Of a DNA stretch of 64,000 nt, positions 14,154 to 51,376 are shown in pieces (within the stretch, counting starts at the first letter, position 1; each line of letters starts with the position of its first letter). Source of the DNA: Cyclobacteriaceae bacterium. Its GTDB lineage: Bacteria > Bacteroidota > Bacteroidia > Cytophagales > Cyclobacteriaceae. Below the pieces are notes generated by a model, which made no database searches, had not been told where the DNA came from, and was given only the letters and a program-made list of their open reading frames with translations. The DNA is taken from the NCBI GenBank assembly GCA_040902445.1, contig JBBDXJ010000293.1, positions 2,075 through 66,074 of the forward strand, read 5' to 3'. A program made the translations under genes and the position numbers.

Positions 14154-14170
14154 TCTCCAATGCAGCTATC

Positions 14171-34804: not shown

Positions 34805-36626
34805 ATGTTTCAAAACTATTTCAAGATTGCCTGGAGAAATATGTCCAGGCAAAAAATGTACACCTCCATCAAGATCGGAGGTTTTGCCATCGGATTGGCT
34901 ACGTGTATTGTCATTGGGCTCTTCATCCGGCATGAATTGAGTTATGAATTACATATAAAGGATGCACAAAACATCTATCGCGTTTACAACCAGTACGAAG
35001 ATGGAAGCGGAACTGCCGTTCCCGCTCCATTTGCATCAATATTGAGGGCGGATTATCCCGAAATTGAAAAAGTTGCCAGGCTTATTCCCTACAAATGGTT
35101 CAAATGCAGGAAATAATCTCATGCGCCGGGACGATCAGCTTGAAAATACTTTTGAAGAAGGTTTCGCATATGCCGACCCGGAGTTACTAGAGATTCTGGA
35201 GATCCCCATGGTCTATGGCAGTCCTGCGCACGCGCTGGCCAAACCCAACACAATTGTTTTGGCAAAAAGCAAAGCCGATAAATATTTTCCGAATGAAGAC
35301 CCTGTCGGAAAAACAATCATTCTCAACGATGACAAGTCCCAGCCTTTTACAGTTGGAGGTGTGATGGAGGATTTCCCCCGGACATCGCACCTGCAATTTG
35401 ATTTTTTCATTACCCTTACCGGTAAAGAGTTTTGGCAGGGCGAACAGACTAGCTGGTGTTGCTGGAATTACAACCCGTATATCAAAGTAAGGCCTGGCAC
35501 AGATCCGGCTGAACTGGAAAAAAAATTACTTGCCATGAAAAATATCTATATCGACTACCTCGCGAAGGAAGGAAATCAATCTGTAAATGACGTACGCAAG
35601 TATCTTTTTTTTGTTTTGCAACCTGTGCGTGATATTCACTTGTTTTCAGCAGATATCGGTGACGCGATAGAACATGGCGACATCCGCTACATATGGCTAT
35701 TTGGTGGTATTGCCTGCTTTATCCTTGCGCTTGCCTGCATCAACTTCATCAATCTTTCCACAGCGAAGTCGGCAAACCGGGCTAAGGAAGTTGGATTGCG
35801 AAAAGTTGTGGGTTCAGTCCGGAGTCATCTTGTCAGGCAGTTCCTGACTGAATCGGTGATCTTCAGCATGGTCTCATTTGTTCTTGCCGTTTTTCTGGTA
35901 TGGATTGGCTTGCCTTACTTTAATGATCTCGCGGGCAAAGCCCATTCAATTCCCTGGGGAGCATGGTGGCTTTTCCCCCTTCTGACTGCATCGGCGCTCT
36001 TCATAGGAGTGCTTGCCGGCATTTACCCTGCATTTTATCTTTCATCCTTCAAACCGATCGATGTTCTCAAAGGAAGCATCGCGCGAGGTAGCAAAACTTC
36101 AGGCATGAGGAGTGTGATGGTTGTATTTCAGTTTACGACCTCAATCGTACTGATCATCGGCACGTTCATTATTTACCGCCAGATGGATTTTATTCTCAAT
36201 AAAAAGATCGGGTACGATAAAGACCAGGTAGTGATGCTGCAGGGCGCGAATACTCTTGGTAAACAGCAGCAAACTTTTAAAGACGAGTTGTTGCGCCTTT
36301 CGGGTGTACAACATGTTACAGTCAGCCAGTATTTTCCTGTGGATGGAACAACACGTGATCAGAACATGTTTTATCGCGATGGGAAATCCCAGGAAGAAAA
36401 AGGCTTTGGCGCACAACGGTGGTATGTTGATGAAGATTACCTCAGCACGTTAGCCTGGTATATGATGCAGAAATGGCTTCAGGATTACAAATACCGCACC
36501 GAGATCACCTGGGATGTTTTTGCGATCTCGGGATTTCTCGCTGTATTCATTGCCTTGCTTACGGTGAGCTACCAATCCATCCGGGCAGCTTTGGCAAACC
36601 CAGCGAATAACCTGAGGTCCGAATAA
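34805..36626 (+). pseudogene. MacB/FtsX-type permease pseudogene (frameshift plus ~200-aa internal deletion)
   Basis: The N-terminal 103-aa ORF (MFQNYFKIAWRNMSRQK...) and the 520-aa ORF overlap in different frames at 35064-35116. After ...YVDEDYLSTL (about 36450) the sequence jumps directly to the family C-terminus AWYMMQKWLQDYKYRTEI...LRSE. The rest of the second periplasmic domain and most of the second FtsX module are missing. Confidence 0.75.
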
Positions 36627-38165: not shown

Positions 38166-38334
38166 AAAGTCCACCGTTCACAGATGACGGCCCAGCCATT
38201 GGAGGGGAGACCACCCGGCAACCGGCAACTGGCGCCCGATTATTGACCCGTTATACATTAATGTTTATATTGAATTCTATATCTGAGGAGCCCGAAAAGT
38301 GCTGTCTCCCGTTCACTTAACGTACCTGTTTAAT

Positions 38335-40533
38335 ATGAAATCAAAAAAACTATTCATCAGCTCAGAGGTTCCTTTGAAGGAATCATTCAATTTAAGAAAG
38401 ATTCTTTACATCACTTTCCTGGTCGCATTGATTGCGTTGGATTCATGCAATCCAACATCAGAATCCGTCCAGGTAGAGGACGATGATATCGGAGGAGTTG
38501 TCACCGGACCTGATGGTCCCGAAGCAGGAGTGTGGGTGATCGCCGAAACTCATGACCTTCCTACCAGATATGCCAAGATTGTTGTCACTGATGATAAGGG
38601 ACAATATTTGATACCCGATCTTCCCGACGCGAACTATTCGGTCTGGGTGCGCGGTTATGGATTGGTGGATTCTCCCAAAGAAGAAGCAAAACCCGGCAGC
38701 GTTCTGGACCTCGAAGCCGTGGTAGCACCAAATCCTCGGGCAGCCGCCGAATATTATCCCGCAGGCTACTGGTTTTCCCTGCTCAATGTGCCGGACAAGA
38801 GCAAGTTCCCCGGTACAGGACCGGAAGGAAATGGCATATCTCCCAACATTAAAAATCAGGCTAATTTTTTAAGAAATATAAAATCAGGTACGTGCCTGGC
38901 CTGTCATGCAATGGGCACAAAAGGCACGCGCGAGTTTCAGGCATCGCTGGGAAAATTCGCATCTTCAACCGAGGCATGGGAGAGACGTTTGGCGTCCGGG
39001 CAGGCCGGAGGAAGCATGATCTCTTCCACACACGGGCTTGGGCGCGAGGAAGTTTTGAGGATGCTGGCAGACTGGACGGACCGGATCGCTGGAGGTGAAA
39101 TTCCAGAAGCTCCGCCGAGGCCGGCAGGAGTTGAAAGAAATGTTGTCATAACACAATGGGACTGGGCTGATCCCAAAGCATACCTTCACGATGTCGTCTC
39201 CACCGACAGAAGAAACCCAACAGTGAACGCGAACGGTCCGCTCTATGGTGCACTGGAAGTCAGTGCCGATTATATTCCAGTACTCGATCCGGTGAAGCAC
39301 GATGCGAGCCGCATACCATTAACGGTGCGCGATCCGGAAACCAAACCTGCTTCCGGTCCGGAGATGCCACAACCCTCTCCCTATTGGGGAGATGAGCCCA
39401 TATGGAACAGCAAGACCAATGTTCACAATCCCATGTTGGATGAAAAAGGCCGGGTCTGGATTACCGCTACGGTGCGTCCACCTGAAAATCCTGATTTTTG
39501 TAAAGAAGGGTCCGATCATCCTTCCGCCAAACAATTCCCGATGAACAGGGCCGGGCGACATCTCGGTGTCTATGACCCTAAAACAAAAAAATATACGCAC
39601 ATCAGCACCTGCTTCAGCACACACCACCTCATGTTTGCTGAAGATGAAAACAACACCCTGTGGACGAGCGGTGGAGGAGAAGTGATCGGATGGCTTGACA
39701 CGAAAAAGTATGACGAGACGGGAGATGAAGAGGCCTCGCAAGGTTGGACACCACTTATTCTGGATACCAATGGAAATGGCAAACGCGACAAATACAAAGA
39801 ACCCAATGATCCCGTTGATCCTAAAATGGACAAGCGCATTGCCAGGGGACTTTATGCATGCTCTCCCGCGCCCGACGGCTCGGTCTGGGGCTCTTCTTTA
39901 GGATATCCCGGCGCCCTCATCCGCCTGAATCCGGGATCGAATCCATCAGAAACGGCCCTGGTAGAATATTACGAACTTCCCTTGAATGACAAAGGTGAAC
40001 CTGTCGAAGGATTTTCACCCCGCGGCATGGATGTGGACCGGAATGGTGTGGCCTGGGTTGCACTTGCCAGTGGTCACCTTGCAAGCTTCGACCGGAAGAA
40101 ATGCAAAGGATCCCTTAATGGTCCGGATGCTACAGGTCAGCATTGTCCGGAAGGATGGACTTTCTATACAGAACCACTTCCACAACTAAAAGGATTAAAA
40201 GAATCCGGAAGCGCTGAGTCAAGCTACTACACCTGGGTTGATCAGTTCAATACTCTTGGATTGGGTGAAAATATTCCCATCAATACCGGCAATGAATCCG
40301 AAGCGCTGCTGGCACTGAAGGATGGAGAATGGGTTAAATTACGTGTACCCTATCCGTTGGGATTTTATACGAAGTGGATGGACGGAAGGATCGATGATCC
40401 AAACGCCGGCTGGAAAGGCCGGGGAATATGGGCAACGATAAGCACCCGCGCACCATTCCATATGGAAGGAGGCAAAGGCACTACCAGCAAAGTATTTAAG
40501 TTCCAGCTCAGGCCGGATCCGCTGGCGAAGTAG
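38335..40533 (+). CDS. lipoprotein with a carboxypeptidase-regulatory-like domain and one c-type heme motif
   Basis: ATG at 38335 gives MKSKK...LIALDSC (lipobox). VVTDDKGQYLIPDLPDANYSVWVRGYG is CarboxypepD_reg-like. One CXXCH motif (SGTCLACHAMG, about 38892-38924). Long C-terminal region of unknown fold. Confidence 0.6.
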   Translation: MKSKKLFISSEVPLKESFNLRKILYITFLVALIALDSCNPTSESVQVEDDDIGGVVTGPDGPEAGVWVIAETHDLPTRYAKIVVTDDKGQYLIPDLPDANYSVWVRGYGLVDSPKEEAKPGSVLDLEAVVAPNPRAAAEYYPAGYWFSLLNVPDKSKFPGTGPEGNGISPNIKNQANFLRNIKSGTCLACHAMGTKGTREFQASLGKFASSTEAWERRLASGQAGGSMISSTHGLGREEVLRMLADWTDRIAGGEIPEAPPRPAGVERNVVITQWDWADPKAYLHDVVSTDRRNPTVNANGPLYGALEVSADYIPVLDPVKHDASRIPLTVRDPETKPASGPEMPQPSPYWGDEPIWNSKTNVHNPMLDEKGRVWITATVRPPENPDFCKEGSDHPSAKQFPMNRAGRHLGVYDPKTKKYTHISTCFSTHHLMFAEDENNTLWTSGGGEVIGWLDTKKYDETGDEEASQGWTPLILDTNGNGKRDKYKEPNDPVDPKMDKRIARGLYACSPAPDGSVWGSSLGYPGALIRLNPGSNPSETALVEYYELPLNDKGEPVEGFSPRGMDVDRNGVAWVALASGHLASFDRKKCKGSLNGPDATGQHCPEGWTFYTEPLPQLKGLKESGSAESSYYTWVDQFNTLGLGENIPINTGNESEALLALKDGEWVKLRVPYPLGFYTKWMDGRIDDPNAGWKGRGIWATISTRAPFHMEGGKGTTSKVFKFQLRPDPLAK

Positions 40534-40556: not shown

Positions 40557-41309
40557 TTAAGCTCTTTTCTTTATTAGATCCAGAATGCCGTTGATAAAAG
40601 TCAGGGGGTGGATGGGATTTCCCGGCACGTAAAGGTCGACAGGGTGACGATCGAGAAACGTTCGATTAACGGCGGGGCTATCATCAAATAAACCACCGCT
40701 GATCGCATCGGTTCCTGCCAGAATGATGACTTTCGGATCGGGTATGGCGTCGTAACAAAGCTCTAATGGTTTTGACATGTTTTCCGTGATCGGACCCGTG
40801 ATCACGATTCCATCGGCATGCCGTGGCGATGCGACAAATTCGATACCGAACCGGCTCATATCAAAGTTCACGTTTCCGCAGGCGTTTAATTCCAGTTCGT
40901 TGCTGTTGTCGCCACCCGCGGAAACCTGGCGCAATTTTAATGACCCTTTAAAAAAACCGGCGATCTCTTTCCTGACCAGGGCAGGATCGGGTGTGATGGC
41001 TTTTAGAGCACCCTCGTGAATAATCAATCCTTTCCTGTCGTTGGTTGCCATCCGGTAATCTTTTGAAAATTTAATTTTATTCGGAAAGGCCCTGGCACAT
41101 TCCCCGCAAAAGGCGCATCTTCCGAGATCCAGTGTGAGGGGATTTGAACGGATGGCGCCTGTCGGACAAAAATCAATCAGTGCGTTTTCATCTACTTTGT
41201 CATGAGTGATTTCTGGTACTCCTCTGAATACGCCAGGAACTTCCGCTTTTGTTGGATCGGGAATGTATTGCTTTCCCTGACGTATTAATATTTTTATGTT
41301 GCCAATCAT
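40557..41309 (-). CDS. ferredoxin-like / NuoB-HycG-like small-subunit fusion lacking the proximal [4Fe-4S] Cys ligands
   Basis: 250 aa. The C-terminal part aligns to hydrogenase-3/4 small subunits (RFGIEFVASPRHADGIVITGP, PKVIILAGTDAISGG, VDLYVPGNPIHP), but the four Cys positions read D, N, D, N. The N-terminal part has DFCPTGAI and CAFCGEC. Confidence 0.75.
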   Translation of the reverse strand: MIGNIKILIRQGKQYIPDPTKAEVPGVFRGVPEITHDKVDENALIDFCPTGAIRSNPLTLDLGRCAFCGECARAFPNKIKFSKDYRMATNDRKGLIIHEGALKAITPDPALVRKEIAGFFKGSLKLRQVSAGGDNSNELELNACGNVNFDMSRFGIEFVASPRHADGIVITGPITENMSKPLELCYDAIPDPKVIILAGTDAISGGLFDDSPAVNRTFLDRHPVDLYVPGNPIHPLTFINGILDLIKKRA

Positions 41310-41318
41310 AGATTGCTT

Positions 41319-42824
41319 TTAGAGATCATGACCACAATAACTTAAGTCAAAGCTTTTGTTGGATATTGGAAAATCCGATATCTCATTATTTCTTACGGCC
41401 ATGGCCACTGTCAGCCAATTGTGCATAGAGGGATCTTTGATCCGATATTGATACAGTTCTCCTTTTTCGTCAGTGATGGCGCAGTGACAGATTTCTCCTC
41501 TCCATCCCTCCGTTAATGAAATTCCGAAGGTTTCGGGTTGTGGATGCAACAAAGGTGCACGCGTGGTTATTTCCGGCGGGATTTTGTGGATGATCTTCCG
41601 CAGGTAATAAAGTGTTTGCACAATCTCGTCGTGCCTGATCTTTGTGCGGCTGTAAACATCTCCGTGGTGTTTGATTATGGAAATCGGTGAAAATTCGTTG
41701 TACAGACCATGGGGATGTGTAGTCCGGATATCACGCATGAGCCCAGTGCCGCGGGCGGATATACCTACTGCCCCCAGGGACAAGGCAACATCATGGCTGA
41801 TTACACCTGTTTTTTCCAGCCGCGCCAGTGCACTGGGAAGGGTATGAAACTCTTTCCACATTTGATCAAAATCAGACTCATATTCCTGAAATAATTCTTC
41901 CAGCCTCACAGCAAGCGATTTGGTAAAATCAAAAGGGTTGTATCCGGGACGAATCAGGCCTTTCGCCAACCGGTTTCCACACCACTCCTGGAAGAAATTT
42001 ATCAAAGGCGTTCGCAGCCTTCCAAACACAGCGCTTCCGAGTTGGTAGCCAATGTCTGTGCAGATGGCGCTGAGGCCTCCCGTGTGCATTGCCAGCCTTT
42101 CTAATTCTATAGCAATTGTTCTCGAAAAGTGCAGGTCGGGAGGAGCAGTATAGCCGCATAAATTTTCCCAAAGATTAACAAAAGCCGTGGTATGACCCGC
42201 CACATTATCTCCCGCAATTGATTCCGCCAGGAGGGTGCGTTGCAGTAGTTTATGCTTTGACAAAAAAAGTTGCTCTATACCGCGGTGTTGATATCCGAGT
42301 TGTATCTCGAGGTGAAGAATTTGCTCACCATTGCAGATAAACCGGAAATGACCCGGTTCAATAATACCCGCATGAATGGGACCGACACCAACTTCATGTA
42401 GCTCTTCACTTTCTATCTGGTAAAAGGGATAATTCCCGATCACTGAATTTTTGTCTGCCCTGTCAGACGGATACCGCACAGGTTTTAACCACGGATGGTC
42501 TGAGAATTTCAATCCAAAGTTTTCATGCAAAACTCTCTCAAACACATGAAAGCTTAAATGATTTGCTGTAAAGGAAGGATAGGTTTGTGCGGATCTGGCA
42601 GAGATTTCGGAACTGGATACACAAATAGACGCATTACTGTCGTTGGCGATGCAGCAAATCAGCTTTAATTTTTCGTTGTGAGTGAACCCAAAATAATGAG
42701 CGCAATGATTCACCTCTTTACGGACGAGGCCGGTATTGAGCTCGAGAAAATCATCATACTTTAAGACTGGAATGGCTTGAAGGGCAATCGTACCGTTATT
42801 TGCTATGTTTATGTATTGACTCAT
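41319..42824 (-). CDS. NuoC-NuoD / HycE-HyfG-like large subunit lacking the NiFe-binding cysteines
   Basis: 501 aa. NuoC-like ERVLHENFGLKFSDHPWLKP, then the group-4-type VGPIHAGIIEPGHFRF. The L1 position reads ESIAGDNVAGH, not CGxCxxxH. The C-terminus reads FDLSYCGHDL, not DPCxxCxDR. Confidence 0.8.
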   Translation of the reverse strand: MSQYINIANNGTIALQAIPVLKYDDFLELNTGLVRKEVNHCAHYFGFTHNEKLKLICCIANDSNASICVSSSEISARSAQTYPSFTANHLSFHVFERVLHENFGLKFSDHPWLKPVRYPSDRADKNSVIGNYPFYQIESEELHEVGVGPIHAGIIEPGHFRFICNGEQILHLEIQLGYQHRGIEQLFLSKHKLLQRTLLAESIAGDNVAGHTTAFVNLWENLCGYTAPPDLHFSRTIAIELERLAMHTGGLSAICTDIGYQLGSAVFGRLRTPLINFFQEWCGNRLAKGLIRPGYNPFDFTKSLAVRLEELFQEYESDFDQMWKEFHTLPSALARLEKTGVISHDVALSLGAVGISARGTGLMRDIRTTHPHGLYNEFSPISIIKHHGDVYSRTKIRHDEIVQTLYYLRKIIHKIPPEITTRAPLLHPQPETFGISLTEGWRGEICHCAITDEKGELYQYRIKDPSMHNWLTVAMAVRNNEISDFPISNKSFDLSYCGHDL

Positions 42825-44254
42825 ATCTTCCGGGGCAAATGTTGAGTTGCGTCATGGATGAGATTAACGAGTTCTACGGGAGGATTCAATCCCAGGTAAA
42901 CCACCAGCGCAAGCAGCATAAACTGGCTGAGGGATTCTGCAGGGTGAATCTTTTTTATATTTTCTTCCTTGAAACCCAGCGTCCTGATGAAAAGCATTTT
43001 AAAAATATTTTTTCCCAAAGACCAGATAATCAGCGTGAGAAATAATAACACCAGGATGAGTAACCATATTTTCCCAGATTCAAAAATAGAGCGGAATATC
43101 AGGAACTCGCTGATGAACATTCCTGAAGGTGGCATTGCGGTTATGATAAAAAAGGCGAATAACAATACCATCGCGCCGGGTGTGTTGTATGCAAAATAAT
43201 TTCCGATATCGTAAATACTTTTGCTCCGGTAGATGCGGTAAACCTGGTCAACCTGAAAGAATAAAGCTGGTTTGGCAAAGGAATGTAACACAAGGTGGAG
43301 GATGGCCGCATAATAACCGGCGCCGCCCGAGGCCACACCCAGCATGACAATACCCATGTGTTCCACCCCTGAGTAGGCAAGCATGCGCTTCAGGTTTTTT
43401 ACACGCAAAATGTAAACCGCTGATACGAAAATGGAGATCAATCCTCCGATGACAAGGATCGTATTGGCCCACTGTGCGATCGAAGTGTTGGCCATTACTT
43501 CATAAATCCGGAATATGCCGAGGAATCCAACGTTGACCAATACACTTGCCAGTAGCGCACCTGCTGGTCCCGGCGCTTTATCTTTTGCATCAATTCCCAC
43601 CGTATACATCGGAACCAATCCTGCCTTAGCCGTGAAACCAGTGAAGATGAAAAGGAAAGCAAGCTTGAGCCAAAACGGGTTCAGCAATGGGGCATCGATG
43701 ATCAGTGCCTGGTAGGAGAGCTCTTTAAATCCCTGGTGTTGAAGGGCGATGCTCAGGAAAAGTATACCAACAAATACCAGGGTAATGCTTATGGAACAAA
43801 CAAATATATATTTCCAAGTGGCTTCCAGTGTACGTTCATTTCGATTGTGATAAACTAAAGCCGACGTACTGAGTGTTGTCAACTCCACAAAGATCCAGGT
43901 TACAGCAAGATGATTTGATAAATAGGCAGCACTGAGGGAAGCGATTAGAATCACCATTGCGGCATAATAAATGCCCCGTTGTCTCGGGATATCTTTCCGG
44001 TTATTGAAAAAAACATAGCTGTGATAGAACGCGGGCACACATACGATGCTGAGAATTCCCAAAAGAATAAGGCTCAATGGATCAAAGGTGAAATATTCAA
44101 GCGATGCGAGGTCCCGGCGGTTGAATGCGTGGACCGTTAGCACCCACTGCAACAGGATAAATGACCAAACCGCGAAATAGCTTATAATTCTTTTCTGTGC
44201 GAAGAAAAGTATCAGGCTTAAAACAAAACTCAGAATCAAATATATTCCAATCAT
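42821..44254 (-). CDS. HyfF/NuoN-like antiporter-type membrane subunit
   Basis: 477 aa, polytopic. WIFVELTTLS (TM5 Glu), FTAKAGLVPMY (TM7 Lys), HSFAKPALFF. 4-nt overlap with the large-subunit gene. Confidence 0.75.
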   Translation of the reverse strand: MIGIYLILSFVLSLILFFAQKRIISYFAVWSFILLQWVLTVHAFNRRDLASLEYFTFDPLSLILLGILSIVCVPAFYHSYVFFNNRKDIPRQRGIYYAAMVILIASLSAAYLSNHLAVTWIFVELTTLSTSALVYHNRNERTLEATWKYIFVCSISITLVFVGILFLSIALQHQGFKELSYQALIIDAPLLNPFWLKLAFLFIFTGFTAKAGLVPMYTVGIDAKDKAPGPAGALLASVLVNVGFLGIFRIYEVMANTSIAQWANTILVIGGLISIFVSAVYILRVKNLKRMLAYSGVEHMGIVMLGVASGGAGYYAAILHLVLHSFAKPALFFQVDQVYRIYRSKSIYDIGNYFAYNTPGAMVLLFAFFIITAMPPSGMFISEFLIFRSIFESGKIWLLILVLLFLTLIIWSLGKNIFKMLFIRTLGFKEENIKKIHPAESLSQFMLLALVVYLGLNPPVELVNLIHDATQHLPRKI

Positions 44255-44266
44255 AGTATTCCCGGG

Positions 44267-44896
44267 TCAATCTCTTAGTTGGCGTAGTTGCTCTGAATCA
44301 TGCTCTTTTAATACATCGCCGATCCTATTAACAAAAATTCCCAGCAAGAGCACGCTGACAAAAATATCAAGCATAATTCCTACGTTGACGACCATAGGCA
44401 TTTCACTTCCTGCCGCCAGGGATAAAACAAAGACGCCATTTTCAATGATGAGAAAACCCATTACATGGGTAATGATTTTCCGTCTGGAAACGATGATATA
44501 CAAACCGGTGAAAAGGGAGGATAGAGCGGCAGCAAAAAATATACCTTTCAGTTGATCTTCATGAAGGGTATTGGACAGCAGAAAAGAACCTATTATTATT
44601 CCGGTAATAATGACAACAGAAATAAAATTTGAAACGAATGGTTCCGCTTCCCTGGTCAGGTTATTTCTTTTGATGACATAATTGAGAAAAACCGGAATAG
44701 CGATCGCTTTGAAAACAATCGTTTCAAAAAGAATAAATATCAGATTGATTACGCTGATCTCAATCAATTCGATGAAGGCAACTCCAAAAAGAGCAACACC
44801 CTGAAAGGCCAGGATGGCGATGTAGGTGTAAAGGCGGTTTGCTACCACCATGTAGATGAGGCTAATGATCAGAATGATAAGCAAGGTGTTGGTCAT
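44267..44896 (-). CDS. HyfE-like (NuoK-related) small membrane subunit
   Basis: 209 aa, about 6-7 TMs. Size and position match hydrogenase-4 component E. Confidence 0.6.
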   Translation of the reverse strand: MTNTLLIILIISLIYMVVANRLYTYIAILAFQGVALFGVAFIELIEISVINLIFILFETIVFKAIAIPVFLNYVIKRNNLTREAEPFVSNFISVVIITGIIIGSFLLSNTLHEDQLKGIFFAAALSSLFTGLYIIVSRRKIITHVMGFLIIENGVFVLSLAAGSEMPMVVNVGIMLDIFVSVLLLGIFVNRIGDVLKEHDSEQLRQLRD

Positions 44897-44908
44897 AAAT
44901 TCTATGTC

Positions 44909-45823
44909 TTAACTGATTCTTCCCAGCATGAGCAGTACTCCCAGGAAAATTAATATTGAAATGGAGGTTAGTGTAAAAATAAACTGAGGGTTGTGGTTCA
45001 TCCGGAATCGCGCCATAAAAGATTCGATTGCACCCGCCACAATCGCAAAAAGAATCTCAACTCCTATAAATAATGGAATTGAATAATACAGGGCCATCCC
45101 CGGTGAAATAAATATATTGGCTATAAGGGCACCGTACATCGCGAACTTAAGATTTGTCGTGTGAAGGATAAGGCCCAGATCGAAACCACTATTATCCAGG
45201 ATCATCACCTCGTGCACCATGGTCAGCTCAAGATGTGTTTTCGGATCATCTACTGGCATGCGGCTGTTTTCAATCATGGCTAAGACGATGAATATAAAAG
45301 TCCCCAGCGCGCCCAGCGTATAAGAGATGTATGATTCAAAATGGAGGCTCTGAAAAATTTCAAAGAATGAAGTTTGACCTGTAAACAATGCAAAAGAACC
45401 CATAAGGATAAAAAAGGCAGGTTCGGCCAGCAACGAATATAGCGCTTCACGGCTGGCACCCATACCTTCAAAGCTGCTGCCTGTGTCCATGGCGGAAATG
45501 ATCATAAAGAATTTTCCCAGCGCCAGAACGTAGGCAAAGAATACAAAATCCCCTGGAAAGGACATGATTCCCGGCTGGTCACCAAATGGGATCAGCAAAA
45601 TCGCTGTGATAACGGTTGCAAAATAAATGCTGGGTGCAATCCGGAAAATGAAACTGGTTGTTTCACTGTAGACAACACCTTTCCGGAACAGGCGCCAGAT
45701 ATCCCGTAAAGGTTGAAAAACGCCAGGTCCTTTTCTTCCGGAGAAGATGCTTTTAGTACGGATCACTATCCCGGTAAAGAATAGGCTGGCCGTAATAATG
45801 AGCATAAAACTGATCATATGCAT
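44909..45823 (-). CDS. HyfC/HycD/NuoH-like membrane subunit
   Basis: 304 aa. SGRKGPGVFQPLRDIWRLFRKG and DTGSSFEGMGASREALYSLLAEP are characteristic of HycD/HyfC. Confidence 0.75.
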   Translation of the reverse strand: MHMISFMLIITASLFFTGIVIRTKSIFSGRKGPGVFQPLRDIWRLFRKGVVYSETTSFIFRIAPSIYFATVITAILLIPFGDQPGIMSFPGDFVFFAYVLALGKFFMIISAMDTGSSFEGMGASREALYSLLAEPAFFILMGSFALFTGQTSFFEIFQSLHFESYISYTLGALGTFIFIVLAMIENSRMPVDDPKTHLELTMVHEVMILDNSGFDLGLILHTTNLKFAMYGALIANIFISPGMALYYSIPLFIGVEILFAIVAGAIESFMARFRMNHNPQFIFTLTSISILIFLGVLLMLGRIS

Positions 45824-45825
45824 GT

Positions 45826-47850
45826 TTAAATCTGCCTGAAAAGATCCAGCACATACCCCATTGCATTTATCAAGAATGGGACGGTGAGAGTAATAAAAAT
45901 GAAAACAACTCCGTATAAAATGTAAAACTGAACACTGCCATTCTGTAAAACCCTGAACTTTTCCATAAAACCTCTGATATATTTTGTTGGAGCGTCAACG
46001 AACAAGGCCTCTATTTTATCATAAGGATGCGTTTTCGAATGTACACGTGTTGGAAACACGCCATGAATGGCTCCTTCCTTTTTATTCATAATGAGAAAAG
46101 GTCGTATCAGCTTCCGGTAGGAACGTACAAAAGAATTTGCGGTGTACTGAAATCTGGATGTTGGAGCGGTGTAACCACATGCCCATGTTGGCCCAACCGC
46201 AACGGTCCTGGTAGCGGTTGTAATTTTTTTTATACCCAGGACAAACATTGCCAGCGCAATTAATACCCATGCCGCCATGCTTACCAGTTGAAGGGTATCG
46301 ATAAATCCTGCCTGAATGGGATCCAGCGTATTTTTGCCAGTAAACAGGAAAACGGGGTTTGCAACGGCCCGAACAAAAAATTGAGGCAACACGCCAATTC
46401 CAATAATAAACAGCACGACAATATATTTTGGAAAAAGTTTGGAAAAGTCCGCTTCCTGAATAGTTTGATTTAAGAAGTGTCGCCTCGTCCCCAGAAAGAC
46501 AATACTGAATGCTTTCGTGAAACACAAAAAAGCCATGCCTCCTATAATGGTCAGACCGAAAATAGCAAAAATCATAACGATCGTATGGCCCAATGACTTC
46601 GAGCCGAAGTCGTTAAAGAGACCGGAATAAATAAAAAACTCTGAAATAAATCCATTGAGCGGTGGGAGACCTGAAATAGCAAGTGCTCCAGTTAGAAATA
46701 AGGCAGACGTCTGCGGCATTTTGTTTATCAACCCGCCCAGCTTCTCTATGTCCATTGTATGCGTAGTCTGGTAAACCGTTCCGGCGCAATAAAATAAAAG
46801 GGATTTAAAGAGTGCGTGATTAAAGGTATGCAACAGTGCTCCTGCAAATCCCGTAAATATCAGGAACGAATTGTTTAAGCCCAGGCCGATGGTACCGAGT
46901 CCGATGCCAATACCAATAATGCCGATATTCTCAATGCTGTGATAAGCCAGCAATTTTTTTAGGTTATGTTGTATAATTGCCAGCATTACTCCATAAATGC
47001 CGGTGATAAGCGAAAGAATCAGGATGGTATAGCCAATCAGTAATTGATTCTCTTTTATTAACAAGAGCATCCGCAGGATGCCAAAGATTCCCAGTTTAAT
47101 AATTACACCTGACATAATACCTGAGATGTGAGCAGGGGCTGCGGGGTGTGCGTATGGTAGCCAGGTATGAAAAGGTACAAACCCGGCTTTAAAAGCAAAT
47201 GCAATAAAAAAACAAATAAAAAGTAAAAAACTTATCGGTGGAATCACCGAGGAACTGTATAAGCCGATCGCACTAAAATTATAAGAGCCGGTCTCGCTGC
47301 TCACCCAAAGAAATCCAATGGTAAGAAATACAATGGTAAGGTGGGATTGGACGAGGTAATTGATTCCTGCCTTGAGTGTTTCGATTTTAGCGTGCTCAAA
47401 GATGATCATGAGGAAAGCTGAAATAGCCATGACTTCCCAGACACATAAAAACGCAAGGGTATTTTGAATGCTGTAAATACCAATCATGGCCATATGATTC
47501 AAAATGTAACCCGAATAGTGAAGGTTAATATTTGAAGACTGATGATGGTAAGGCGTCATGTAACGTATGCCATATAGGAGACCTGTTATCATGGTCAGGT
47601 TCATGATGAGGATAAACCATGCGGATAATGAATCTATCCGTATGAGAATTTCGCCAAAAACAAGACCGCCTCCAACAATGAATTCTAAAGGCGGACCCAC
47701 GAGGGCGTGGAATGCTATCCAGGAACTTACTGCCGCATTTAACAGCACAACCAACATTGCCATGATTCCTTTAGCCTTCCCCTTCAGAAATATGAGAAGG
47801 GCTAAAGAACACAAACTTATCAGGATCGATATGGTTAATATCCATTTCAA
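45826..47850 (-). CDS. HyfB/HyfD/NuoL-M-like antiporter-type membrane subunit (copy 2)
   Basis: 674 aa. WEVMAISAFLM, FKAGFVPFHTWLPYAHPAAPAHISGIMSGVIIKLGIFG, HALFKSLLFY, GFISEFFIYSG. Confidence 0.8.
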   Translation of the reverse strand: MKWILTISILISLCSLALLIFLKGKAKGIMAMLVVLLNAAVSSWIAFHALVGPPLEFIVGGGLVFGEILIRIDSLSAWFILIMNLTMITGLLYGIRYMTPYHHQSSNINLHYSGYILNHMAMIGIYSIQNTLAFLCVWEVMAISAFLMIIFEHAKIETLKAGINYLVQSHLTIVFLTIGFLWVSSETGSYNFSAIGLYSSSVIPPISFLLFICFFIAFAFKAGFVPFHTWLPYAHPAAPAHISGIMSGVIIKLGIFGILRMLLLIKENQLLIGYTILILSLITGIYGVMLAIIQHNLKKLLAYHSIENIGIIGIGIGLGTIGLGLNNSFLIFTGFAGALLHTFNHALFKSLLFYCAGTVYQTTHTMDIEKLGGLINKMPQTSALFLTGALAISGLPPLNGFISEFFIYSGLFNDFGSKSLGHTIVMIFAIFGLTIIGGMAFLCFTKAFSIVFLGTRRHFLNQTIQEADFSKLFPKYIVVLFIIGIGVLPQFFVRAVANPVFLFTGKNTLDPIQAGFIDTLQLVSMAAWVLIALAMFVLGIKKITTATRTVAVGPTWACGYTAPTSRFQYTANSFVRSYRKLIRPFLIMNKKEGAIHGVFPTRVHSKTHPYDKIEALFVDAPTKYIRGFMEKFRVLQNGSVQFYILYGVVFIFITLTVPFLINAMGYVLDLFRQI

Positions 47851-49838
47851 AGTATGTTGGAAAAAGTTGCTAAAATTAAAATCAGCATGAAAAGGAATCC
47901 ATACAGTATATAGAACTGTACCCTTCCGTTATGAACGAACGAGAAGTAATTCATAAAACTAAATAACTGATTGGAAATCCTGTTAAGAATATTTTTTTCA
48001 AAAAATTCCGCATAGTTTGATTGATAACTCCGGTTTGCCGGAAAGACAGTCCGGGGCTCAATTTCCGTATATTTTTTTTCTTCGCCGGTAATGAAAGCAA
48101 ATAACTTGGCAAGGGTTTTTGAAAATGATTTTCCGGTGTATTGAAATTTCTCACCGCGTGCTATATATCCGCCACCCCAGGTCGGAGAGATATTTACCGT
48201 TCTCCCGGAAACGATCCTGGATCGCACGTAGTAGATCGAAGCCGCCAGGAGTATTACTATCAGGGAGGCTATTCCAACTTCAGATACCATGGGAACAAGG
48301 GAGGGTATAATCTCATTTTCAGGAAGTGTATTGCTAAAGCCCTGCGCTATCTTTTCAATGGTCGTCAGTATCAGGGAGGGAAAAATTCCAATGAGCAGCA
48401 TTAAAAACAGAATGAGGAAAAAAGGCAGATGACGGTAAGATAAATATTCCGGTTTTGGATGAATGGTTTTATCACGGGGGTTCCCGAGAAAAATAACACT
48501 AAAGGCTTTTCCAAAAGTCAACAAGGCAATACCACTTACCAAAGCCAGTCCCACGATCGCGGAAATCATAAGTATGTTAAACTTAAAACCCGTTGCGCGA
48601 ATACCTTCTATCAGACCGGAAAACAGTAATAATTTCGAAACAAACCCGTTAAAAGGAGGGAGCCCGCAAATCGCTATGGCTCCGCACAAAAAGAAAAATG
48701 TCGTGGAAGGCATCTTTTTTATTAAGCCACCCAAATGTTCCATGTTCCGCGTATGGGTCAACTGATAGAGATTTCCGGCCGTGAAAAAAAGAAGGGATTT
48801 ATAAAGGGAATGATTCAATAGATGGAGAAGGGCTGCTGAAAAGCCTATCACCAAAAGAATTTGATTTCCGGTTCCTTTCCCGATCAACCCTATGCCAATT
48901 CCCATTCCGACAATCCCCATGTTTTCAATAGTAGAAAATGCAAGGACGCGTTTGTAATCGCGATGAATCGCTCCACTGAGTATTCCGTAAAAAGCAGTCA
49001 AAACTGACAACACAAGAATGCCTGCACCAATGATCACTAAATCCGAGGTCAGATAGGCAGACATTCTCAGAATGCCATATATTCCCATTTTTACCATGAT
49101 GCCTGACATGATCCCTGAAATATGGGAAGGAGCAGCAGGGTGGGCGTGGGGAAGCCACGTATGGAGTGGGATAAATCCTGCCTTTATCCCAAAGCCAATA
49201 AAAAAGAGTAAAAAGAGCCGGGGAGAATCGGCCTGATTGAAGGATCCGATTGACTCAAAGCCAAAAGATCCTCCTGCAACCGAAGCCCATATAAATGCAA
49301 TGGTCAAAAAAACAATCGCAATGTGCATCTGAACCATGTAGGTGATACCCGCATTCAATGTTTTGAACCGGCTGTAATCAAACATCATCAGGAGAAAAGA
49401 AGAAACGGACATGATCTCCCACACCACCAGAAATGCCAATCCGTGTTGAATAGAGCAAACCAGGATTAGGGATGCGTGAAAAATGACGAAGGAAGTCCAG
49501 TGAAGGGAAAGATTACTGCGCTGGGCTGAATACGCCTTCATATAATGAATGCCATACCACGCACCGGTTATACAGGTAATGTTGACGAGCAGGATAAACC
49601 ATGCAGATAAAGGATCGATTCGTAAAAGAATATCTCCAAATACCAAACCGCCGGCAATGGAAAATTCAATTGCCCTGGTTGCAAGAACATGTATTGAAAC
49701 GATCGAAGTAGTGACAGCATTGAGCAACACGAACAACAATGCTACCCTGGATTTTTTTGAGGGAGATAAAAGTGGAATAAGGATAGGGGACAAAACCGTT
49801 AACAACCCGGAATATAAAATCAGAAACCGACCATCCAT
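47847..49838 (-). CDS. HyfB/NuoL-like antiporter-type membrane subunit (copy 1)
   Basis: 663 aa. WEIMSVSSFLL, IKAGFIPLHTWLPHAHPAAPSHISGIMSGIMVKMGIYG, HSLYKSLLFF, GFVSKLLLFSG. Confidence 0.8.
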   Translation of the reverse strand: MDGRFLILYSGLLTVLSPILIPLLSPSKKSRVALLFVLLNAVTTSIVSIHVLATRAIEFSIAGGLVFGDILLRIDPLSAWFILLVNITCITGAWYGIHYMKAYSAQRSNLSLHWTSFVIFHASLILVCSIQHGLAFLVVWEIMSVSSFLLMMFDYSRFKTLNAGITYMVQMHIAIVFLTIAFIWASVAGGSFGFESIGSFNQADSPRLFLLFFIGFGIKAGFIPLHTWLPHAHPAAPSHISGIMSGIMVKMGIYGILRMSAYLTSDLVIIGAGILVLSVLTAFYGILSGAIHRDYKRVLAFSTIENMGIVGMGIGIGLIGKGTGNQILLVIGFSAALLHLLNHSLYKSLLFFTAGNLYQLTHTRNMEHLGGLIKKMPSTTFFFLCGAIAICGLPPFNGFVSKLLLFSGLIEGIRATGFKFNILMISAIVGLALVSGIALLTFGKAFSVIFLGNPRDKTIHPKPEYLSYRHLPFFLILFLMLLIGIFPSLILTTIEKIAQGFSNTLPENEIIPSLVPMVSEVGIASLIVILLAASIYYVRSRIVSGRTVNISPTWGGGYIARGEKFQYTGKSFSKTLAKLFAFITGEEKKYTEIEPRTVFPANRSYQSNYAEFFEKNILNRISNQLFSFMNYFSFVHNGRVQFYILYGFLFMLILILATFSNIL

Positions 49839-49908: not shown

Positions 49909-50178
49909 TTAAAAGAGATTTTCCGGTTCATGTTTCTGCAGGCTTTCAAATATTTTAATTGCTTTTGTGATATTGTCCCTCTCCTGAATAATTACTCCTT
50001 CCGCCTTGAGGTACTTGAGCGCCATAATCATATTCAGAATAAATCCCCGTTTTGAGTTAAAAGCATTCCGCCGGTTTTTCTGTAAATCCTGTATTGCCGC
50101 GCTGACTATTTCGATTAAAATTTTGTCATCCGCAGCGGCTTTAATCTTAATGATGACCGTGTGGCTGAAGTATACCAT
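49909..50178 (-). CDS. hypothetical small soluble protein upstream of the Hyf/Ehr-like operon
   Basis: 89-aa ORF on the same strand, 70 nt upstream of the operon's first gene. No TM segment, no Cys, no family I recognise. Coding status uncertain. Confidence 0.3.
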   Translation of the reverse strand: MVYFSHTVIIKIKAAADDKILIEIVSAAIQDLQKNRRNAFNSKRGFILNMIMALKYLKAEGVIIQERDNITKAIKIFESLQKHEPENLF

Positions 50179-50421: not shown

Positions 50422-50435
50422 TTGATTTAAATCAA
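50422..50435. promoter_or_regulatory. perfect CRP/FNR-type palindrome TTGAT-TTAA-ATCAA
   Basis: Read directly at 50422-50435, in the 475-bp region between the minus-strand small ORF/operon and the plus-strand Crp/Fnr gene. Confidence 0.55.
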
Positions 50436-50616: not shown

Positions 50617-50653
50617 TATTGCGTAACTTGCCTGCCGCTAAATTATAAATGTG

Positions 50654-51376
50654 ATGACAACGGGATTTCGGTCAGATGATTTCCGCTATAACACAAAAGG
50701 GATTTTCGAGGGGCTTTCACCGGAGAATCTGCAACCGCTTCGGGATGCAAGCGTTACGCATCGGTATAAAAAAGGCGAAATAGTTTTTCGCGAAGGAGGA
50801 ATCCCTGCGGGAATTTTTTACCTGGTAAGCGGGAAGATAAAAAAGTATAAAACGACCGCAAAAGGCGGTGAACAAATATTTTATGTTTGCACTGCCAGGG
50901 AGCTATTGGGTTATCATGCGATATTGAGTGAGGAACATTATCCTGACTCGGCAGCCACTATTGAAGACTCTGAAATTACTTTTATTCCCAAAGAGAATTT
51001 TCTGAAAGTTTTACAAGCCTCTCCGGTTCTGTCGAATAAACTTTTGAAAACGTTGGGTCATGAGTTCAGTGTTTTTATCAACAGTATTACGAGCCTGGCA
51101 ACCAAATCCGTACGGGAGAGAATAGCGCTGAATCTGTTGATCCTTGATGAAAAATATAAAAGGGAAGAAAAACAGGATGGGCCAGGTGAAATCAATATGT
51201 CGAGGACTGACTTTGCCAATATGGTGGGCACAGCGAAAGAAACGCTGGTAAGGTTACTGCAGCAATTTAAGAGTGAAGGCCTGATTGAGTCCAGTGGCCG
51301 GGCAATCAGAATATTAAACAAAAAAGGGTTGGTACGAGAGGCTAATTTTTCAGGAACGCATTCAAAAATGTTTTGA
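50654..51376 (+). CDS. Crp/Fnr family transcriptional regulator (no FNR-type Cys cluster)
   Basis: cNMP-binding-like domain (GEIVFREGGIPAGIFYLVSGKIK) and C-terminal HTH (RTDFANMVGTAKETLVRLLQQFKSEGLI). Only one Cys, so it is not an Fe-S FNR sensor. Confidence 0.8.
   Translation: MTTGFRSDDFRYNTKGIFEGLSPENLQPLRDASVTHRYKKGEIVFREGGIPAGIFYLVSGKIKKYKTTAKGGEQIFYVCTARELLGYHAILSEEHYPDSAATIEDSEITFIPKENFLKVLQASPVLSNKLLKTLGHEFSVFINSITSLATKSVRERIALNLLILDEKYKREEKQDGPGEINMSRTDFANMVGTAKETLVRLLQQFKSEGLIESSGRAIRILNKKGLVREANFSGTHSKMF

Follow-up and report, generated by a model that had tools for sequence, protein, structure and literature searches.

We analysed a 64,000-nucleotide stretch of DNA from a Cyclobacteriaceae bacterium (contig JBBDXJ010000293.1; the whole stretch is hereafter called the window) and examined EhrS, the small subunit encoded by the last gene of a seven-gene operon that we assign to the complexes called Ehr, for energy-converting-hydrogenase-related. 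EhrS is predicted to hold ligands for one [4Fe-4S] cluster only, and this cluster would occupy the medial, N6b-type site. The distal, N6a-type site and the terminal, N2/proximal-type site are both predicted to be gone.

Architecture of EhrS

The open reading frame (ORF) at 40557-41309 on the minus strand, which was confirmed from the ORF list, encodes 250 amino acids. An identical protein in the database, P0001 from a Cyclobacteriaceae metagenome-assembled genome (MAG), is annotated just as "hypothetical protein". The gene and its two domains are as follows.

40557..41309, minus strand: ehrS, fused HycF/NuoI-like and HycG/NuoB-like small subunit of 250 aa (PF01058 and weak HycF/HyfH/NuoI models)
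41010..41309, minus strand: N-terminal ferredoxin-like domain of EhrS, residues 1-100, with an amphipathic helix at residues 2-11 (alignment to HycF 7z0s_F and NdhI; helix from the model)
40560..40940, minus strand: NuoB/HycG-like domain of EhrS, residues 124-250, without cluster ligands (phmmer, Foldseek)

Pfam matched the NuoB family PF01058 (Oxidored_q6 fold) at residues 136-244 (E 2e-19), and all NCBIfam NuoB models scored below their cut-offs. For the N-terminal part, the Pfam Fer4 score was below the cut-off and weak matches to the HycF/HyfH/NuoI models of NCBIfam were observed at residues 4-96. When the NuoB half was searched with phmmer, MbhJ (E 4e-23) and HycG (E 4e-19) were matched. 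The AlphaFold2 model of EhrS had a predicted local distance difference test (pLDDT) score of 93 and a predicted template-modelling (pTM) score of 0.90, and its N-terminal amphipathic helix resembled that of HycF/NuoI; such a helix is a feature of the superfamily (PMC9474812). Furthermore, the C-terminal half of the model superposed on HycG, MbhJ, and NDUFS7 with a target-normalised TM-score of 0.7-0.8 and a root-mean-square deviation of about 2 Å, although the Foldseek matches cover the NuoB half only and the ferredoxin half was placed by sequence alone. Judged from these matches, a trimmed ferredoxin domain of the HycF/NuoI type and a domain of the HycG/NuoB type are naturally fused in EhrS.

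The ligand set in the ferredoxin domain

EhrS has six cysteines, namely C48, C65, C68, C71, C144, and C185, and the first four lie in the ferredoxin-like domain, whose positions were set by alignment to HycF (7z0s_F) and NdhI. The HycF/HyfH/NuoI subunits that bind two [4Fe-4S] clusters have eight cysteines in two CxxCxxCxxxCP motifs, whereas motif I of EhrS aligned as K38/E41/L44/C48-P49 and motif II as C65/C68/C71/F75-P76.

41163..41168, minus strand: C48-P49, the sole remaining motif I ligand (its Cys-Pro) (alignment to HycF/NdhI)
41082..41117, minus strand: motif II, C65-x2-C68-x2-C71-x3-F75-P76, with Phe-Pro at the Cys-Pro position (alignment to HycF/NdhI)

An earlier note, made from the DNA letters, had read motif I as keeping its final Cys-Pro alone, with K, E, and L upstream, and motif II as ending in Phe-Pro; the alignment gave the same picture. 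It had also proposed that the kept cysteines make up one complete ligand set, and comparison with NdhI bore this out. In NdhI, N6a is ligated by Cys65/68/71/115 (motif I Cys 1-3 and the motif II Cys-Pro) and N6b by Cys75/105/108/111 (the motif I Cys-Pro and motif II Cys 1-3), as assigned in a model built on Thermus thermophilus complex I (PMC6358722). N6a is the distal, N6b the medial, and N2 the terminal cluster (PMC7021789). A literature search on the cluster ligands of HycF found none, and the assignment rests on the NDH-1 modelling paper (PMC6358722). C48 together with C65, C68, and C71 is the complete N6b-type set, so the surviving predicted site is the middle link of a three-cluster wire with both neighbours absent. 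If four of eight ligands were kept at random, a complete set would result in 2 of 70 ways (2.9%).

Replaced ligands in the NuoB domain

The positions in the NuoB domain were set by phmmer alignment to the solved structures of MbhJ (6cfw_J) and HycG (7z0s_G). NuoB proteins with the proximal/N2-type cluster have four cysteines (CxxC or CC, GxCxxxGG, and PGCPP), none of which was found in EhrS. EhrS VSAGGDNSNELEL lies opposite MbhJ VNSGSCNGCDIEI and HycG VDCGGCNGCEIEI, which places D134 and N137 at the CxxC; the CxxC stretches used were "SGSCNGCDIEI" of MbhJ and "GGCNGCEIEI" of HycG. Likewise, "GTDAISGG" lies opposite "GACPTGG" and "GACGNSGG", with D201 at the third Cys, and "VPGNPIHP" opposite "VPGCPPRP", with N231 at the fourth. 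These are the Cys-to-Asp and Cys-to-Asn replacements that had been noticed earlier at the CxxC, GxCAxSGG, and VPGCPP sites.

40899..40910, minus strand: D134-N-S-N137, replacing the CxxC of the proximal/N2-type cluster (phmmer alignment)
40707..40709, minus strand: D201, replacing the third cluster Cys (GTDAISGG) (phmmer alignment)
40617..40619, minus strand: N231, replacing the fourth cluster Cys (VPGNP) (phmmer alignment)
40878..40880, minus strand: C144, a Cys peculiar to the clade, on helix alpha-1 of the NuoB domain; elsewhere Leu is usual at this position (alignments)
40755..40757, minus strand: C185, a Cys peculiar to the clade, on helix alpha-2 of the NuoB domain; elsewhere Thr is usual at this position (alignments)

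C144 and C185 are probably packing residues rather than ligands, because their positions are Leu and Thr in the homologs that bear the cluster. On the same ground, and since position 137 varies, a shifted cluster site made from C144 and C185 was considered and rejected. The alignments to the solved structures gave no shifted set of NuoB-type ligands.

Conservation among orthologs

We examined the best 120 of more than 8000 matching database proteins, which were 71-100% identical to EhrS. In the ferredoxin domain, C65, C68, C71, and P49 were each present in 120/120 orthologs and C48 in 119/120, and Cys never occurred at positions 38, 41, 44, and 75; position 44 was Leu in 118 sequences and position 75 was F or Y in all. 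Variation in the Cys content of the ferredoxin domain was thus not seen among the 120. The replacements in the NuoB domain were kept to a similar degree. D134 and N231 were each found in 120/120, position 201 was D in 118 and E in 2, and Cys occurred at none of these three positions. The former cluster loops ("AGGDNS.ELE", "GTDAISGG", and "PGNP.HPLTF") were at least 95% conserved, among the best-kept stretches of EhrS, and C144 and C185 were present in 115/120 and 120/120, respectively. When the alignment was widened to 71 family members with identities down to 30%, C48 and C68 were the sole invariant columns, and C65, C71, and P49 were at least 90% conserved. The four medial-cluster cysteines are the best-kept positions of the family. 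These counts support selection, not decay, as the source of the cysteine pattern of EhrS, in agreement with the earlier note.

Position 137 behaved differently from the other three former NuoB ligands. It was C in 74 orthologs (62%), N in 25, S in 20, and T in 1, and its codon specified Cys in 63 of 71 species-level loci with a readable motif; the Asn137 state was concentrated among the closest relatives of the window protein. Because position 137 is still Cys in most orthologs and positions 134, 201, and 231 never are, the Bacteroidota lineage is predicted to have lost three of the four NuoB ligands early, and several sub-lineages, including that of the window, then lost the fourth. With Cys137 kept in 62% of the orthologs, the window protein would represent an end state. 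The earlier statement that all four proximal-cluster cysteines were lost is therefore correct for the window protein and its nearest relatives, but not for most Bacteroidota orthologs, which keep Cys137.

The operon, EhrL, and the membrane arm

The operon and the genes other than ehrS are given below.

40557..49838, minus strand: Ehr operon of seven genes, ehrA1, ehrA2, ehrB, ehrC, ehrD, ehrL, and ehrS (last) (ORFs, Pfam, NCBIfam)
47847..49838, minus strand: ehrA1, HyfB/NuoL-like antiporter-type subunit (Pfam/NCBIfam)
45826..47850, minus strand: ehrA2, HyfB/NuoL-like antiporter-type subunit (Pfam/NCBIfam)
44909..45823, minus strand: ehrB, HyfC/HycD/NuoH-like subunit (PF00146)
44267..44896, minus strand: ehrC, HyfE-like membrane subunit (NCBIfam NF008556, E 2e-16)
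42821..44254, minus strand: ehrD, HyfF/NuoN-like antiporter-type subunit (Pfam/NCBIfam)
41319..42824, minus strand: ehrL, NuoC-NuoD/HycE-like large subunit of 501 aa, without NiFe ligands (PF00346, PF00329; phmmer against HycE, E 1e-37)
42204..42215, minus strand: A204-G-D206-N207 of EhrL, replacing the N-terminal NiFe motif C-G-x-C (alignment to HycE and Nqo4)
41331..41342, minus strand: S495-Y-C497-G498 of EhrL, replacing the C-terminal NiFe motif C-x-x-C (alignment to HycE "DPCYSC")

We assign the complex to the Ehr family, as its Bacteroidota type, because the composition of the operon and the family matches equal the list of Ehr subunits in Geobacter, which comprises EhrA-1, EhrA-2, EhrB, EhrC, EhrD, EhrL, and EhrS (PMC7894505). 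The NCBIfam scores of the operon proteins were all far under the curated cut-offs, so that none of them is an ordinary Nuo or Hyf protein.

In the large subunit, EhrL "SIAGDNVAGH" lies opposite HycE "RVCGICGFAH" and "DLSYCG" opposite "DPCYSC", and the four cysteines that bind NiFe are absent; they were likewise absent in 70 orthologs. G205 occupies the site of the quinone-binding Tyr87 of Nqo4 ("RMDYLHSFAH"). Neither the Tyr87 equivalent nor the N2 ligands, both of which mark a quinone reductase of the complex I type, were found in EhrL and EhrS. The earlier proposal that the relay to the former NiFe/N2 site is broken is thus supported and sharpened, with a medial cluster that has neither partner and a large subunit that has no NiFe cysteines.

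EhrL is nevertheless strongly conserved across the 70 orthologs, including the hydrogenase-like loop "GVGP.HAG.IEPGHFRF" and "EGWRGEICH". D206, which lies between two former Cys positions, is present in at least 97% of them. Of its own cysteines, C164 and C446 occur in 70/70, C41, C58, and C255 in 68/70, C448 in 60/70, and C497 in 56/70. C446 is missing from the large subunits that are paired with small subunits keeping the four NuoB-type cluster cysteines.

In the membrane arm, the charged residues of the antiporter-type subunits were matched to the Glu of transmembrane helix 5 (TM5), the Lys of TM7/TM8, and the Lys/Glu of TM12 by motif, not by structure. E141, K219, and K250 of EhrA1, E139, K221, K252, and E404 of EhrA2, and E124, K210, and E383 of EhrD (67 orthologs) were invariant. 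EhrB was the most conserved membrane subunit, with 41% of its columns at least 95% conserved and a conserved loop, "ENSRMP.DDP.THLELTM.HEVM.LD.SGFDLG". By these residues and the NuoH-like loop, the membrane arm is predicted to keep the hallmarks of ion translocation.

Distribution and the wider family

In a distribution scan with one genome per species, a relative was found in at least 526 genomes, and the best 80 loci were examined. These all belong to Bacteroidota (Cytophagales, Chitinophagales, Saprospirales, Flavobacteriales, Sphingobacteriales, and Bacteroidales), with cultured organisms among them, namely Chryseolinea serpens DSM 24574 and two species of Arcticibacter. The gene order A1-A2-B-C-D-L-S is kept in most of the 80 loci, with a single A gene in a few, and EhrS is 63-80% identical across these genomes. 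At one locus, from a Draconibacterium MAG (L077), a second Ehr/Hyf-like set (A2-, B-, C-, and D-like; 10902-15845) follows directly downstream of ehrS, so that two related complexes are encoded in tandem.

A wider search against 50%-identity representatives gave 4076 matches, and the best 150 were sorted into three classes of small subunit. Class A has the full 8-Cys ferredoxin domain and CCCC in the NuoB domain; class B has the four ferredoxin cysteines seen in EhrS and CCCC in the NuoB domain; class C has the four ferredoxin cysteines and zero NuoB ligands. On fetched contigs, the large subunits beside class A and class B small subunits were also without NiFe cysteines ("SIAGDT..", "DLSYCG.DL"), and the complexes are hence all of the Ehr type. 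This pattern suggests that the NiFe site was lost first and that the clusters were then pruned from three to two to one. The Ehr family would thus offer a natural deletion series of an electron wire.

The small-subunit tree was a rough midpoint-rooted neighbour-joining (NJ) tree with no support values, and the count of losses drawn from it is provisional; on this tree at least two losses of the NuoB cluster are probable, with Cys-less forms in at least two or three clades. The first contains the Bacteroidota sequences with P0122, P0123, and P0127 and has the pattern D-x-D-N/H. The second, nested among CCCC sequences, consists of P0179, P0255, P0159, P0223, P0237, and P0250, with the pattern D-x-D-S/D and the gene order B-C-D-L-S-A. 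The third is divergent and has no Asp at positions 134 and 201 (P0157, P0149, P0181, and others). When 14 members of the first two clades were aligned, at identities as low as 31%, Asp134 and Asp201 were invariant, and position 231 was S, D, or H in other Cys-less clades. The four medial-cluster cysteines were kept by nearly all members of the Cys-less clades; in P0250, Gly occupies the first position of motif II. The predicted one-cluster end state is fixed in a large Bacteroidota clade and probably arose separately elsewhere too.

Three further matches, P0251, P0252, and P0231, are free-standing NuoB-like proteins of 178-192 aa with no or a single Cys and with Asp, Asn, or Ser at all four former ligand positions. 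Since P0251 and P0252 are without any Cys, cluster-free NuoB homologs exist. In the distant Cys-less clade with the order B-C-D-L-S-A, genes for DUF190 (PF02641), a universal stress protein, and MFS proteins repeatedly adjoin the operon (L084, L090, and L081), and at L084 a flavodoxin gene lies about 1.5 kb upstream. P0286 (159 aa) was considered as a possible Rv0082 of Mycobacterium tuberculosis and dropped, since its contig comes from a metagenome and has the order B-C-D-L-S-A with DUF190, MFS, and MutS neighbours; the M. tuberculosis complex carries an Ehr-like locus, Rv0082-87.

The assignment to the Ehr family, the predicted stepwise and, on the rough tree, probably recurrent loss, the medial position of the predicted cluster, and the conserved replacement residues go beyond the earlier note.

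Possible functions of the complex

Electron transfer is workable up to about 14 Å, and N2 lies about 12 Å from the quinone site. Sazanov and Hinchliffe reportedly placed N6b about 10.5 Å from N2 in 2006. By analogy, the former N2 site would be roughly 10 Å away from the lone cluster, and the EhrL pocket well over 20 Å away; with the 14 Å limit and these two distances, an electron on the cluster could not reach the pocket at a useful rate. We infer that the canonical wire from donor to pocket is cut in the window complex. With the wire gone and neither NiFe cysteines nor a quinone Tyr present, activity of the hydrogenase or complex I type is excluded on sequence grounds, and the complex is almost certainly neither a hydrogenase nor a complex-I-type ferredoxin:quinone oxidoreductase, which narrows the possible functions.

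Our preferred reading, which is tentative and which we credit with somewhat less than an even chance, is that the complex is an ion translocator with the EhrB/EhrL/EhrS junction as a coupling or gating cap and with a lone cluster that is structural or redox-sensing. The membrane arm would still move ions in the style of Mrp-type cation/proton translocators, and the junction would act as a non-catalytic coupling or gating module. The ferredoxin-like domain would be held together by the lone cluster, which may also act as a one-electron switch that senses how reduced the ferredoxin/flavodoxin pool is, and Asp and Asn at the former N2 ligand positions would make the old cluster cavity polar.

Several points weigh against this reading. 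The distances come from homologous structures in the literature and not from a model of this complex. The extreme conservation of the EhrB/EhrL/EhrS junction, including the EhrL loop, could equally mean that chemistry persists in the pocket, and a purely structural role does not obviously explain why exactly this cluster survives in every lineage. Cys137 in most orthologs, together with C164, C446, and C448 of EhrL, may allow an unconventional metal site. Finally, the repeated loss of the NuoB cluster comes from the rough NJ tree described above, with its midpoint root and no support values.

The first of the alternatives, which is unlikely but has several observations in its favour, is that a redox-driven pump persists. 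The medial cluster, which the loss of the distal cluster and of much of the HycF body would leave exposed, would take single electrons from soluble ferredoxin or flavodoxin and reduce an unconventional acceptor, either a substrate or new cofactor about 10 Å away in the Asp/Asn-lined former N2 cavity or one at the EhrS/EhrL/EhrB junction. This reduction would power the movement of ions. In the two-cluster members of the family, the medial cluster must be the point of electron entry and so is probably within reach of a donor. Nowhere is the complex better conserved than in the former cluster loops and at the junction. D134 and D201 recur in clades that are separated on the NJ tree, which points to a functional site and not to filler. 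MBS provides a precedent, being without NiFe and having a catalytic Fe-S cluster, and MbsJ (6u8y_J) matches EhrS structurally; the flavodoxin gene near one distant locus (L084) also fits. However, no acceptor-specific domain or partner gene is conserved beside the operon in the 80 loci, close relatives freely have C, N, S, T, or A at position 137, and the whole third Cys-less clade is also without both Asp residues. Moreover, D-x-x-N/C...D...N fits no known cofactor motif.

A somewhat fainter possibility is a redox-dead Q-module, that is, a coupling machine of the complex I type without electron delivery to its "catalytic" pocket. D134, N/C137, D201, and N231 would face D206 of EhrL, the former electron path would become a polar gate that binds ions or metal, and the medial [4Fe-4S] cluster would serve as a one-electron redox switch that adjusts transport to the ferredoxin/flavodoxin pool. 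NiFe loss would have come first, after which a carboxylate/amide site would have replaced the proximal cluster, probably more than once. If true, such a module would be widespread in Bacteroidota and other phyla.

We regard as very unlikely a hidden cluster at the NuoB site on shifted or non-Cys ligands, such as C137, C144, and C185 with an Asp, by which the wire would not be cut. Most orthologs do have these three cysteines in the NuoB domain, and [4Fe-4S] clusters with one Asp ligand are known, but position 137 is N in the window protein and S, T, or A in relatives, which leaves two cysteines, and those two probably serve helix packing, as argued above from the Leu and Thr of cluster-bearing homologs. 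In addition, none of the 120 orthologs has a Cys at three of the four canonical positions.

A decaying relic of a hydrogenase-4-type operon with a Cys pattern produced by drift is the least probable explanation: the active site of the large subunit is lost and the Ehr complex of Geobacter was treated as non-functional in one paper (PMC13194489), but the seven ORFs are intact and in the same order in most of the 80 genomes across several orders, EhrS and EhrB are conserved to the extent given above, the four cluster ligands are nearly invariant, and the proteome of Geobacter is rich in Ehr subunits (PMC7894505).

D134, D201, N231, and the four cysteines C48/C65/C68/C71 are singled out as residues for mutation. 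The complex would also be a natural system for an old question about complex I, namely what part the NuoH/NuoD/NuoB junction plays in ion translocation when no redox chemistry reaches it.

Neighbouring genes and possible regulation

No gene for a redox partner and no hyp gene was found within 10 kb of the operon in the window. The genes within this distance encode an aminotransferase, MFS transporters, a hydroxyacyl-CoA dehydrogenase, a dipeptidase, an amidohydrolase, a split MacB-type permease, a CxxCH-containing protein, and a Crp-family regulator. When the flanking ORFs of the 80 loci were clustered, no conserved neighbour, redox partner, or hyp gene beyond the seven Ehr genes was observed, except for the Crp-family regulator, a homolog of which adjoins the operon in 6/80 loci and is thus a minority association.

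50651..51376, plus strand: Crp/Fnr-family regulator, divergent from the operon (PF00027, PF13545)
50422..50435, no strand: TTGATTTAAATCAA, a perfect palindrome of the Crp/Fnr type in the gap that separates the operon from the divergent regulator, candidate regulatory site (motif scan)

The palindrome occurs as a single copy in the 64-kb window. Of 55 related loci, 4 (L013, L027, L056, and L071) have a box like it upstream of the operon, and three of these also have the regulator gene; the background rate of Crp/Fnr-type boxes was 0.0066 per 500 nt. Between the palindrome and ehrA1 lies an 89-aa ORF (49909-50178, minus strand), which matched no family, was without a counterpart at the 80 related loci, and is probably not a gene.

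On the other side, a 744-aa protein (38299-40533, plus strand) converges on ehrS. It carries a haem-binding motif of the CxxCH type (GTCLACHAMG) along with a weak CarboxypepD_reg-like domain, and it is not conserved beside the operon in other loci. A MacB/FtsX-type ABC permease at 34805-36626 is split into overlapping ORFs (34805-35116 and 35064-36626) that match positions 5-75 and 89-204 of the MacB_PCD profile, indicating a frameshift, due to either a pseudogene or an assembly error.

Comparison with known systems

The closest solved structures are those of the formate hydrogenlyase (FHL)/hydrogenase-4 group of Escherichia coli (HycE/F/G and HyfG/H/I), with 7z0s_E for EhrL and 7z0s_G for the NuoB half of EhrS, and the membrane subunits score best against the HyfB/C/E/F models of hydrogenase-4. 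FHL has a NiFe site, the clusters F1, F2, and G1, and a formate dehydrogenase input module, whereas in the window complex the F and G parts are fused, one equivalent of a HycF cluster is left, and there is neither a NiFe site nor an input module. NuoI and NuoB of complex I/NDH-1 have the same folds as EhrS, and the retained ligand set corresponds to N6b; unlike complex I, EhrS is without N6a and N2, and EhrL is without the quinone ligand of the Tyr87 type.

Of the sequence matches to the NuoB half, the best is MbhJ (E 4e-23) from the membrane-bound hydrogenase (MBH) of Pyrococcus, and MbsJ (6u8y_J) from the sulfane reductase (MBS) of Pyrococcus matches too. MBH has three clusters (equivalents of F1, F2, and G1), as does MBS, in contrast to the one site of EhrS. 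In MBS, where the NiFe site has been lost, catalysis takes place at an Fe-S cluster, and MBS is thus a working relative without NiFe.

The Mrp-type cation/proton antiporters share the antiporter-like subunits with the conserved TM5 Glu, TM7/TM8 Lys, and TM12 Lys/Glu, and our preferred reading likewise has ions moved without a redox reaction. Mrp is not known to have NuoH-, NuoD-, or NuoB-like subunits, which are the best conserved parts of the window complex. Like the single-cluster [4Fe-4S] ferredoxins, EhrS has a bacterial ferredoxin fold with a single four-Cys set that is complete. Motif I Cys 1-3 and the C-terminal Cys-Pro are the ligands kept in classical monocluster ferredoxins, whereas EhrS keeps the opposite set (the motif I Cys-Pro and motif II Cys 1-3), fused to a NuoB fold.

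Ehr complexes were first named in Geobacter sulfurreducens. They have reportedly been known since 2005 through Coppi, and the family is said to have been defined in 2013 by Marreiros. In the Ehr literature, the large subunit is described as having no NiFe ligands and the function as uncharacterised; apart from the founding papers (Coppi 2005 and Marreiros 2013), we found in it no mention of cluster loss from the small subunit. The Geobacter complex and that of the window are alike in their subunit set, their group-4-hydrogenase ancestry, and the NiFe-less large subunit. The window EhrS differs from Ehr as described in that it is also without the proximal cluster and the distal ferredoxin cluster, and other Ehr small subunits in the family keep three or two cluster sites. 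With the same reservation about the founding papers, it is this graded series of three, two, and one predicted clusters in the small subunits that adds to the known loss of NiFe ligands in Ehr.

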